Source of the DNA: Octopus sinensis
Taxonomy: Eukaryota
Direction of reading: 5' to 3'
Length of the DNA: 64,000 nucleotides
Assembly (NCBI RefSeq): GCF_006345805.1
Contig: NW_021832231.1
Location: 62,001-126,000 of the forward strand
The notes beneath the pieces are model-generated. The model did not search any database. It was not told the DNA's origin and saw only the letters and a list, made by a program, of their open reading frames with translations. Position numbers and translations under genes: made by a program. This document shows, in pieces, positions 10,452 to 27,513 of the stretch. Numbering within the stretch: position 1 is the stretch's first letter; the number at the start of each line of letters is the position of its first letter.

Positions 10452-13400
10452 TTAGTCGACGTTCAAAGTCAAACAGACGCCCTTAAGGATCCAATGACTG
10501 AGATGTAGTGTAGTCACGAGGTCTGCCTCAAACACAAGTCCGACACCCATTGCATTTCTCCTGTCGGAAGTAACGTAGACTGGTGCTTTGTATGTGTTCT
10601 GGAAATGTATGCTAACAAGTACGTGGAGTTTTAGTCGATGAGCTTCAATGGGAGTTATCTTCAGGATTGGGAGTGGCTCCACCAGGCATTTGGGTCTCTG
10701 AGGCGCCAAGCACCCCTCTTCGACATCCCACGAGGCACCCTCAATGAAGAGTCCTTGAACGAAGCAACCTGCTCAAGTCAGAATGGCAAGACAAGCCTTG
10801 GTGGAGTTTCTCGCTGACGTCTTGTTCGGTCTTGTAATTTGTGACTGTGGTGAACAACGTGGACTTGTCCAACGGCCACTTGTTGAGACGGCAGGTTGTC
10901 TGGACCAGTGCCGTAAGATAGGACTCTGGGACATGGATGCCAGAGAGCCACATCACGTTCGGCTCCCCCTCTTGGACCCAGTCCTTGTACAGCTGATATC
11001 GTCTCAGCAAATGTTCGATCCAACTGCCCAAAGCTTTAAGTGTCATTGGAGCAAGTCCTCTCCAAAGTTCTGGGATTTTTCCATTGAATAACGCGCGGGA
11101 AATATCTTCGAGTTCATTGCTCATCCCAATTTCGCCAACCAATGCCTAATTTGAGCAACCCAAGCACTACTTTTTGAAGTAGATTGAGTGATAACTTGAT
11201 TGTGGTGGTTAAATTGTTGAATCGTTCGATTTCCTGGAGGAGAACAACCCCCGTCGGCTGAATGTCGGAGCCCATTTCTTTCCTTATTTCCTCCAAATTG
11301 AACGGTTCGGACAATTTTTTAAGAATATCTCTGGCAATATTGCCAATGAACTCATCTCGACTCATTTCAAGTCCAATGTTGGCCGTTTGCGGCTGCATGT
11401 CAATCAAATGGTTCCATATCGTCTTGGCAGCCTGAAACATCAAGTCAAGCCAAGACCGTGGTGTACGTTGATATTTCCGCATTTGGGTCCAGCCCGAACG
11501 CCTCCGGAGTATTGGTTAGTGGGAGAGTCTCGATATAGGCGAGGTATCCCTCCTTTTTGCCCTTGTCGGGGGGAATGCAATAGTCGACGTTTTTGTCGCA
11601 GTAAAAGTGGAACAACTGGAACGTGTCGAAAATAAAATCCCCCATGTATTCATTCATGTACGTCCGCAAGATTCTCCTGTCGATTTCGTCGATCGCTCGG
11701 CCTCCGTACATGACCTTAACAGGTCAGGCCACGTGTCTTACCTCCCCAATCAAATATTTGAGGGTGTTCCAGGGAATCGCGTTTTCACTCGAATCCCTCT
11801 CTTTGTCCAAATATGTCTTGAGAATGTCGAAGCAGACTGAAAAGTCCGAGTCGTTAAAATCGTAGGGGATGTTCCACCCAATTTTGCCATACTTTCTTCG
11901 CTCCTGCACAACTGCGTGGAAAAAGGACAGGACGAAGACCAGCGGACTGAACGCTGGGTGCGCGCATTCCCTCAGTGCACTGTCCGATATCTTGACATAT
12001 GTTCCGTGCAAATTCAGTTTAAGACCATTTGGCGGTTCGGTCACGACCTGGAAATTAGTTTCCATCACACACCTTCATCGACCTCTGCAGAATCCCGATC
12101 GGGAACAGTTCGGTGGGCTCAGTCGTAATCCAAAGCCTAAACTCGGGGTGTGGTTTGGTGATTTTTTCCAAACTTTCTTCCAGTGTTTTAAGCCAGTCCA
12201 CCAACAAATGGCAGTTCTGGAGCATCAGCCAATGACCCCGCTGGACAGCTACTTCCAAGTGCTGAATCGCGATCTAGGGCTGTGGAGACAATTCCATACA
12301 TGTTCCTGGCCCTGCCCCATGGAAAGGAATTTGATGCGATTGGGGTCAAAGTTAAGACTTTCTGCCAACTTTAGCAGGTCTTTCGCGGGGTCTGCCCCCG
12401 GGGAGAGAATAAAGACGACGGGAGAGGCAGCAATGCTTTGTTCGTATATGGCCGTGAAGGTAATGATCGGCGGAGATATATACACCTCGCCGATGCTGTC
12501 CGACACAAACTTCTCCATTGCTCTGTACACCCTGTCTATTCGGAAACACCGTAAAAGCATTAGTTTTTGATATTTCGATATCTCGTTGTAGATTGTTGGG
12601 TACTCGACTGATTCTGGTGCATCGTGGGATACCCACTGGCAATGTCAGCACTATTTCAACCTCAACCCACTTTTCCTCGTTATTCGAAATGTCAGCCAGT
12701 AAAGTGGAAAAAGTGTTCCCGCCGATTTCCACCAGACGCACAATGTCTTCCCAGTTGCTGTCCTTGAGCCATTCAAATGGTTTTGGGGTCGTACTCTTTT
12801 CCAGAGAAACATTTCCCTGCATTTGCACCAACAATCTACTTTAAGGAAAAAGTCGATTTCCTCTTGCTTTATTTCTCCGGCATTTTCCAAGATTCTGACC
12901 GCAATTTGAAACGAAAAAAGAAGTTTGTGTTTTTCGAAAATGCCTGTGATTAAACAAAGAGAGTGTACCAGTGCACCCGTAGTAGTATACATTATATGTG
13001 AGGCAATTGATTATGTTTTCCAGCCTCTTCTTGAGTTTGGAGTCGGGCAAACTTTTTTTCAGCGAGAATTGGAACACGTCGAGGAAGGCAGACAGCGAGT
13101 ACTGGTACATTGAATTGACCAGCGATAGTTCTGCGAGCACGAAAAAGAGAATGGCCCCTCTTCTCGCTACGGGTCTGTATCCATCACGCAATTTCTCAAT
13201 GTCGCGGGAAGTTATCGCCCCGTTTTTCAGTTTGGCACTGACCTGGGTATTAGCCACGTGAATAATACTTCCGAAGCCTTCATTTTGGTTTCCTCCAGAG
13301 TTTCGATGAGTTCTGTGTTGTCCAACATGTTTCCCGTCGACGTCGTCAACTCCCGTAAAAGCGAGTCCTCCAAATCTTTGAGCAGATTTTTATTCTCACT

Positions 13401-26217: not shown

Positions 26218-27513
26218 TTAATGTGGCTGAGTGATGAGTTCGTAAAGTCTTTCTGAAAGAGTAAGCACGGAGAGAGTACTCTTGTAGTACTCGGTCGACT
26301 TGGACTCGTCAATGTCGAAAGTCGACTCGAACTTGCAAGTGACGGGCTCGTCGCCTGGCTCGTGGAACTCGGCAAGAAAAGGGTGAGAGATCGCCTCCTC
26401 GGGGGTGATCCGGACGTCGACGTCAAACTGAAACATTTTCTCAAGCAAGTCGACGGCTGGGAGTGAAGGAAGACTACCTTCGTCCGACGCCTGAGAAAAG
26501 TACTCCTTAAAGTCGACTCTCGGATAAAACTTTTGCTTCATCATGAACTTCCTGGCCTCGACACTGGTCAGTTTGTCCACGAACTCTGCACTGGGAGTGC
26601 CCAGGAACTTGAGGATTTTCAAAAGTTGGTGAGTGTCTGGACTGACTAAACAGAGAATACGGCTTTTGCCCGGAAGATGACATGGCCGACGAGCATTTCC
26701 CCGAATATGCACCCAATGGACCAAATGTCGACTGGGTCAGATGGGGACATACCCGTGTGGTTGGGCTGCATCCAGTTGAGGATGATCTCGGGGGCACGGT
26801 ACCAGCGAGTGGCCACATAGCCCGTCTGCAGTCCCAAGTTGACCTTGCGGGCCAGTCCAAAGTCCATTATCTGGAATAGCAAAAGTGGTGACCTTGACTT
26901 CGCAGTTCTCCATGAGTCCGATGTTGCTGGGCTTGATGTCCTGGGACTAACAAAGGGGGATTACTCGGTGGATTATGCCGGCCGAGTGAATGTACTACAA
27001 GTAGAGGAAACAAGCACTTTAATGGCCCTGAGTAACTGGTAGAGAATGAAGCAGATCTGTTCGAGGTTGAGTTGCTGTGTTCGAAGGACGTTGTCGAGGT
27101 CACTGTCCATCAGGGGCATTGTGAGGTATCTGGGAATAGAGAGTGTCGCCTACATGTCGTCGAAGGAGTCGTAGGACGTGTTGGGGGTGAAAAAGTCGAG
27201 CAGTTCAATGACCTAAGATGAGGAGGCGACTACATGCATTCTCGTGCTTCATGTGCTTCATTATCATCAGTTCTCGACAGGCCCTCTTGGCGTGCATGCT
27301 CGTCGAAAACACACTTTTCAGTTTCTTGATGGCCCTGTACTTGTCCTCCGTTCGGTCGTACGCCCTGCTACACGTTGGCCACACACTCTACTAGACATTC
27401 CCGAATGCCCCGTGCCCGATCAGGCTCACTTGCTCGTACTTTGTGGGCATCTCCAGTGCAATCGACCCAACCTTTACGACGTGAAATCCGGGCTTCTTTG
27501 CATTACAAGACAT
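26218..27513 (-). CDS. p38: p38 MAP kinase
   Basis: [70 protein letters not shown] (TGY activation motif). Confidence 0.92.

Follow-up and report, generated by a model that had tools for sequence, protein, structure and literature searches.

GC-AG introns in the ultra-short-intron genome of a probable dicyemid within the Octopus sinensis assembly

An axonemal dynein heavy chain 10 gene (DNAH10; 10452..26046, minus strand) with 72-73 introns of only 21-31 nucleotides (nt), nine of which start with GC instead of GT, is encoded in a 64,000-nt stretch of the Octopus sinensis assembly GCF_006345805.1. This stretch (the window) comprises bases 62001-126000 of an unplaced 1.03 Mb contig (NW_021832231.1, here C8702) of the 2.7 Gb animal assembly. 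The nine GC-AG introns are ancestral introns with real splice junctions. The best overall explanation, to which we assign a probability of roughly 0.7, is that in the organism carrying this DNA, a probable dicyemid rather than the octopus, donors are recognized from the last two exonic bases (-2/-1) to intron position +3, and that GC donors arise there by T-to-C drift at +2.

A profile built from 44 DNAH10 proteins, out of 120 listed, was aligned to the window with a purpose-written spliced aligner that permits any donor. The spliced product comprises 4589 residues with zero stops and zero frameshifts, and its 72 introns in this alignment have 63 GT and 9 GC donors, which differs from a 1% GC rate with p = 5e-8. 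A sequence-only reading of the window had proposed seven GC introns in this gene and two ambiguous ones (14690-14717 and 15910-15937); the aligner recovered all nine at identical coordinates, the ambiguous pair included. If every non-GT donor was charged the same price of 3-6 bits, 8/72 donors were GC and two fell on the other 14 dinucleotides together; at 12 bits, six GC donors and zero others survived. All eleven intervals proposed by that reading (in DNAH10, p38 and CLUAP1) measure 24-28 nt and, on the minus strand, begin with GC and end with AG.

Five of the DNAH10 GC introns have wide margins over the best GT-only path (all on the minus strand; the slash marks the exon-intron boundary): 10769..10796 (28 nt, AAG/GCT, phase 1; 27 bits), 19096..19123 (28 nt, CAG/GCA, phase 0; 24 bits), 15023..15046 (24 nt, AAG/GCA, phase 0; 23 bits), the retention of which leads to an in-frame stop, 13399..13426 (28 nt, GAG/GCA, phase 2; 21 bits), and 15281..15306 (26 nt, CAG/GCA, phase 0; 19 bits). 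The margins are smaller for 14519..14543 (25 nt, AAG/GCC, phase 0; 8.8 bits), where the GT alternative is 16 nt, and for 14690..14717 (28 nt, AAG/GCA, phase 1; 7.3 bits), with a GT alternative 7 nt off. The intron at 15910..15937 (28 nt, AAG/GCA, phase 1; 6.6 bits, posterior 0.74) is the least certain and only probable, because a GT 3 nt further in costs just one extra residue, and 20880..20903 (24 nt, AAG/GCG, phase 0; 6.4 bits, posterior 0.91) is also only probable, because its in-frame retention costs just eight extra residues. Note that an isolated 0.9 kb DNAH10 duplicate with four GT introns and one frameshift is present at C1219:3610-4508 (L071); it was considered for a second-species comparison and dropped, being merely such a duplicate.

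The window DNA is not of host origin, and the cobiont carrying it is likely a dicyemid. We assign it so because introns this short are known among animals from dicyemids and myxobolids only, as far as the available text of PMC13644364 goes, and because of a spiralian innexin, the distribution of a repeat, and a separate host DNAH10. The latter lies on the chromosome-scale contig C1 and has kilobase introns. The innexin of the window shows at best 46% identity to any non-self protein, with annelids and molluscs as the best named sources, and the repeat at 8970-9205 has its matches exclusively on high-numbered contigs (39/39), in both cases among the matches listed. C8702 is rich in genes, and its introns, as called by a gene finder described below, are 22-28 nt long with a mode of 25 nt. 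All this describes a spiralian animal with ~25-nt introns at ancestral positions in a cephalopod assembly; a match to a named dicyemid was absent among the listed protein matches.

Comparison with the host gene supports the intron boundaries. In the span shared by both DNAH10 genes, 50/53 intron positions are common, in the same codon and phase, among them those of all nine GC introns (9/9), whereas the host donors are GT without exception (54/54). Most of the doubt about boundaries is resolved because the GC introns coincide with host intron positions. With all nine at such positions and with intron bodies that look unrelated by eye, the GC introns do not resemble newly gained or introner-type introns. 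Furthermore, transcript contigs from three runs of one study were compared with window positions 9000-19000, covering 12 of the 22 rows of skips. They are ~98% identical to the window and skip modelled introns exactly; because of this, we regard them as spliced, though the run type is not on record. All three runs skip the intron 10769-10796 and one skips 15281-15306, and none of the shifted placements of these two skips yields GT-AG.

How frequent are GC donors outside this gene? Six dyneins including DNAH10 were aligned with splice contexts learned from GT introns only and with a GC prior that started at 1%. The GC share per gene was 9/73, 8/45, 3/51, 3/47, 2/53 and 1/55 (26/324 pooled, with ten calls for the other 14 dinucleotides). 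C12461 was excluded as noisy (15/48 calls neither GT nor GC, 3 GC), as were C10357, C12478 and C9094, which are near-identical copies of C12462. C12462 and these three copies represent one dynein heavy chain gene and are either recent duplicates or alleles of it; the three copies that cover them retain three GC donors, while the introns otherwise differ, and one copy reads TA at a donor where the three others read GT. The dynein loci (L073-L089), apparently from one organism, vary in G+C content at third codon positions (GC3) from 0.28 to 0.60, and intron GC tracks it from 0.16 to 0.41.

For other genes, a purpose-written self-training ab initio gene finder that permits all 16 donors was applied to 896 kb of C8702, 31% of it masked. 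Its training started without DNAH10 and without any GC intron; even so, 7-8 of the 9 GC introns of DNAH10 were found immediately and 9/9 later, together with 57-59 of 64 GT introns. On C8702 outside DNAH10 it called 1050 introns with 983 GT, 31 GC and 36 other donors, and parts of two more contigs gave 6/246 GC (2/249 with a flat prior). Among calls with a posterior >0.8, 24/1055 were GC and seven belonged to all other 14 dinucleotides together. In a calibration, real GT donors charged the GC price were recovered at 0.90 after exonic AG and at 0.67 otherwise. On these calls, the GC share outside the dyneins is estimated at ~3% (2-4%), with a GT denominator that is somewhat inflated, as the finder also calls three short GT introns in a host locus. 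This is several times the 0.37-0.87% given for five model species in the accessible part of PMC1557818, and the two richest dyneins reach 12-18%. The claim of a rate above 1% therefore holds, whereas the 10-13% suggested by the sequence-only reading is limited to DNAH10 and one other dynein; even a rate of 3% leaves DNAH10 an outlier on the high side (p = 3e-4). Along the contig, the GC share has no clear trend with gene size or local GC3. A model-free spacing check over the 896 kb found an excess of 53 for AG/GC (z 2.8) and of 190 for AG/GT (z 10.7), the control AG/GG giving z 4.0, probably due to neighbouring GT donors.

The GC donors obey a distinct rule. In the six dyneins, 25/26 are preceded by exonic AG, and the comparison of GC with GT donors gives -2A 0.96 vs 0.68, -1G 1.00 vs 0.53 and +3A 0.77 vs 0.42. 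Position +3 is A in 20/26 GC donors overall and, among AG donors, in 19/25 AG/GC vs 31/92 AG/GT (p = 2e-4); in the ab initio set it is A in 12/15 AG/GC vs 55/233 AG/GT, where the +3 weight of the finder slightly favours A. Thus, the usual compensation for a GC donor still operates. The proposal that +3 to +6 are nearly unconstrained is true of +4, +5 and +6 (0.02, 0.11 and 0.02 bits) but not of +3. In the host DNAH10, +4 is A in 40/54 donors, +5 is G in 43/54 and +6 is T in 28/54. If the dyneins and the ab initio introns (p>0.8) are pooled, the GC:GT counts are 31:86 for AG/GYA, 9:239 for AG/GY with a non-A base at +3, and 10:987 for non-AG donors. For the dyneins alone, AG/GYA donors are 19 GC to 31 GT, and the interior C/(C+T) share is 0.15-0.40; +2 appears to be nearly free at these sites because the GC share is close to this interior share. 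Donors with GA, GG or another dinucleotide do not rise above background, and none of the eleven window donors or the other listed GC donors reads GCATCC, the U12-type sequence (PMC1557818, in its available part).

Donors of the cobiont carry more information on the exon side (0.61 bits) than on the intron side (0.29 bits), and left-handed GT donors (-1G,+5H) outnumber right-handed ones (-1H,+5G) by 470 vs 192 of 1312, with 445 being neither; the host has 11 left-handed and 14 right-handed donors and none that is neither (0/54). -1G and +5G show no see-saw (odds ratios 0.98 and 1.18), and -1G and +3A do show one (0.34, p 7e-17; dyneins 0.64, p 0.07). In seven dyneins, AA/GT (95) is nearly as frequent as AG/GT (104), so that -2A weighs more than -1G for GT donors; many ancestral AG donors of the host DNAH10 on C1 have become AA donors in the window through synonymous change.

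Pairing with U1 small nuclear RNA (snRNA) was scored against the canonical 5' end of the host U1 as a stand-in for that of the cobiont. The count is 7.0 pairs for host donors, 5.3-5.4 for GT donors of the cobiont and 5.2 for its GC donors; the donor-U1 energy is -6.5 kcal/mol (median) in the host, about -1 for cobiont GT donors and -0.8 to -1.9 for GC donors. Judged by these pairings, GC donors appear to be compensated up to the local average, compensation being retained with a threshold far below that of the host. The suggestion that introns are defined mainly by length plus exon-side contacts is borne out for the exon side; length contributes without being sufficient. Although 98% of the confident short introns are 22-28 nt, length alone ranks just 12/73 real DNAH10 introns correctly among 1015 GT/GC...AG pairs of 21-31 nt, compared with 41 for the donor, 26 for the acceptor, 25 for composition and 59 for all together, the last figure being optimistic, as DNAH10 belonged to the training data.

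Among the splicing components of the cobiont, U5, U6, U1C, METTL16 and SNRNP27 look canonical. Its U6 (three copies) has the canonical ACAGAGA box, and its U5 (at least 11 copies listed) a canonical loop 1; the contigs with U6 (three loci) and U5 (two loci tested) have repeats in common with C8702 but none in common with 200 kb of host sequence. The 5' stem-loop of this U6 (L012:4991-5090, L013, L014) is five bases shorter than the Rfam consensus. The U1C protein fits the human finger region, METTL16 and SNRNP27 are present, and a compensating change was not seen in U5, U6 or U1C. The cobiont U1 was not found: an Rfam search yielded U1 copies of the host plus a single host-like fragment, two pattern searches and three candidate loci gave nothing, nhmmer over the retrieved loci returned host copies only, and the U5/U6 copies had no usable common upstream motif for locating it.

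Two LUC7 genes were found in the host and one in the cobiont (on C8460). The second zinc finger of the cobiont protein is 63% identical (24/38) to the host paralogue on C5 and 40% (17/43) to that on C10, the yeast-like one. The cobiont protein is thus probably of the LUC7L3 type, an assignment by elimination, based on the available text of PMC11842720 and on known motifs; ESM Atlas names the LUC7 family for it, not the subfamily. LUC7L2 of the cobiont was found neither with PF03194 (17/17 candidates scored) nor with the host finger exon (4/4), and its absence from this assembly need not mean loss. Note that the host LUC7L2-type finger query did find the more distant cobiont LUC7 gene, but no orthologue. 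According to the same source, as far as it is accessible, donors with -2A/-1G are promoted by LUC7L3 and those with +5G by LUC7L2, and the donors of fungi, a group in which LUC7L3 was lost, are right-handed.

Our explanation can be put as follows. The GC introns are ancestral ones that have been reduced to ~25 bases and have had T replaced by C at their second base, and the ordinary major spliceosome of the probable dicyemid likely removes them. The donor would be held by a short helix from exon positions -2/-1 to intron position +3 and not through +4 to +6. We infer that the average cobiont donor pairs with a canonical U1 at ~5 of 9 positions, and that a donor with -2A, -1G and +3A would have one pair to spare and could lose the +2 pair. 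T-to-C changes may then drift in at sites of the AG/GNA type. More speculatively, the exon-side bias may be tied to the keeping of LUC7L3 and the loss of LUC7L2. In its fullest form, which we put forward tentatively and with the odds somewhat against it, the lineage has lost LUC7L2 together with the right-handed donor class, a five-base core from exonic AG to intron +3 is read, the bases that usually pair with U6 are disregarded, the near-invariant +2 drifts to C at complete AG/GNA sites, and the cobiont would be the first mirror image of fungi.

Several points weigh against this explanation. Transcripts support 2/9 of the dynein GC junctions, come from one study and represent a haplotype that is ~2% different and whose own donor bases are unseen. 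GC donors per AG site are more frequent in dyneins (25/117) than in other genes (15/248; p = 4e-5), an excess which the model leaves unexplained; dyneins are also richer in AG donors. The figure of ~3% rests on a purpose-written gene finder, and the spacing check, with its control at z 4.0, gave no confirmation. The pairing figures depend on the host U1 in place of the missing cobiont one. Exonic AG is also lacking at the p38 GC donor described below. Pairing of the exon side with U5 loop 1 would produce the same pattern (PMC11732430, available part), and the two are indistinguishable from sequence. Finally, the LUC7 link is a correlation in one lineage, not a cause.

Among the alternatives, sloppy splicing fares best, even though we consider it improbable. 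Weak donors including GC would accumulate by drift where selection is relaxed, and retention or mis-splicing of GC introns would be common. The 445 of 1312 GT donors that lack both -1G and +5G, the tenfold variation of the GC rate between genes (1/55 to 8/45) and the inefficient splicing of very short microsporidian introns (as cited in the accessible text of PMC13644364) speak in its favour. However, the 14 remaining dinucleotides, GA and GG included, do not exceed background (7/1055 together), and the spliced form at 10769 holds all the listed contig depth, though contigs drop rare variants. Moreover, this alternative denies a directional shift to the exon side, which the left-handed excess contradicts; drift itself is common to it and to the preferred explanation.

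We give slightly less weight still to the model of the sequence-only reading, in which about one in ten introns genome-wide is GC and introns are defined by length and exon-side contacts, with +3 to +6 ignored. It accounts well for the two GC-rich dyneins (9/72 in DNAH10, 8/45 in the second), for the narrow length range of the confident short introns and for the nearly free +4 to +6, but fails on the other genes of the contig (31/1050) and of two more contigs (6/246). The recovery of AG/GC donors (0.90) is too high to conceal a threefold shortfall, +3A is selected, and length alone picks few real introns. Equally unlikely is an altered Prp8, or an altered U1 (e.g., with G for the A that faces +2), that reads GC directly. 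The U1 that escaped Rfam and two pattern searches may indeed have diverged, and for the GA donors of other animals a variant U1 has been put forward (PMC7072748, in the part available). However, GC is rare without AG/GCA compensation, which is what a mismatch, but not a matched pair, would produce, and a pattern permitting the change gave 7 matches vs 11 for its control, the one unplaced match not being U1. An artefact of assembly errors or misplaced boundaries is very improbable, despite probable single-base losses at some donors (such as the TA in one dynein copy) and four GC margins below 9 bits, since errors would neither recur as the same three GC donors in three copies with otherwise differing introns, nor fit the exact host positions and RNA skips, nor select AG/GCA.

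Two further GC introns were proposed in the window outside DNAH10. That of the p38 MAPK gene (27213..27237, minus strand, 25 nt, AAT/GCATGT) joins N82 to the next p38 residue and has a posterior of 0.99. Its exon ends in AT, and it is thereby an exception to the claim that GC introns follow exonic AG; +3A, +5G and +6T match the consensus instead, so that this donor fits what an additive donor rule would predict. The second one, in CLUAP1 (4539..4562, minus strand, 24 nt, AAG/GCA), is probable with a posterior of 0.90, but it is in frame and stop-free and may be retained. In another p38 intron (26637-26662, minus strand), the frame needs a G before GT and the gene finder gives a CC donor, likely a single-base loss in the assembly comparable to the TA call in one dynein copy.

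Other features of the window and its relatives were noted. The dispersed repeat at 8970-9205 is ~235 bp long, occurs with 84-90% similarity on many cobiont contigs and has high depth in the transcript contigs. The innexin gene (41909-43078, minus strand) has no introns, though the genome has ~5 introns per kb of coding sequence. RPL26 at 9261-9877 has a second copy of 93% identity on C8702 at 294530-295151. The AT-rich region 49000-61000 contains remains of a DDE transposase (55481-55825) and a fragment of a secretin-family 7TM receptor (51500-51889). Contigs of the second organism include C8702, C6303, C8460, C12467, C10363, C9300 and C9082, among others, several of them 0.4-1 Mb long.

In comparison with known systems, the GC introns studied here appear to behave as U2-type GC-AG introns, with which they share the GC...AG ends, GT-to-GC switching and a better-than-average match of the remaining donor (PMC1557818 and PMC11732430, as far as available). 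The difference concerns +5G: human GC donors need -1G and +5G according to the same texts, whereas +5G occurs in 8/26 and 9/24 cobiont GC donors (31-38%), about as in GT donors (25-32%). This lowers the likeness to human GC donors, not the U2-type status. By analogy, the closest animal parallel would be the copepod Eurytemora affinis, whose GA/GG donors need exonic AG and nearly always have +3A, i.e., follow the same AG/GNA rule (PMC5714493, accessible part). There, however, +2 is A or G in ~12%, and the introns concerned are recent gains in long genes; in the cobiont only C is tolerated at +2, the introns are ancestral and 21-31 nt long, and GA/GG are at background. Dicyema has a median intron of 24-27 nt, ancestral positions and a donor reduced to GTa (PMC13644364, PMC6543705, PMC6736024, PMC2222250, in part), and, as in Dicyema, the cobiont has a weak A run near the 3' end of introns (A 43% at -8, 39% at -7). 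In the available text of the dicyemid literature we found no mention of GC donors, exon-side dependence or LUC7, although logo figures or Ogino 2010 may already show them.

For practical purposes, a set of parasite contigs of about megabase scale lies unflagged within the host assembly, and the 8970-9205 repeat is a useful marker to bin them. Gene models built for these animals with GT donors only would be broken at ~3% of introns, in DNAH10 at nine places. How animal introns shorter than 30 nt are recognized is stated to be open (PMC13644364, available text), and a measurable rule can now be offered: weak overall pairing, information concentrated in the exonic bases and +3, and a +2 that is partly free at AG/GNA. 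The GC introns are real, and the effect is smaller than first read; the possible loss of LUC7L2 may be the sharper lead. Kenny et al. 2025 described that donor handedness follows the content of LUC7 subfamilies (PMC11842720), and the cobiont, with LUC7L3 kept, LUC7L2 not found and a left-handed excess, could be the reverse of fungi, a lineage of a kind not described in the accessible part of that paper. If LUC7L2 is truly lost, the probable dicyemid would provide a natural test, in the direction opposite to fungi, of the co-evolution of LUC7 subfamilies and donor classes.

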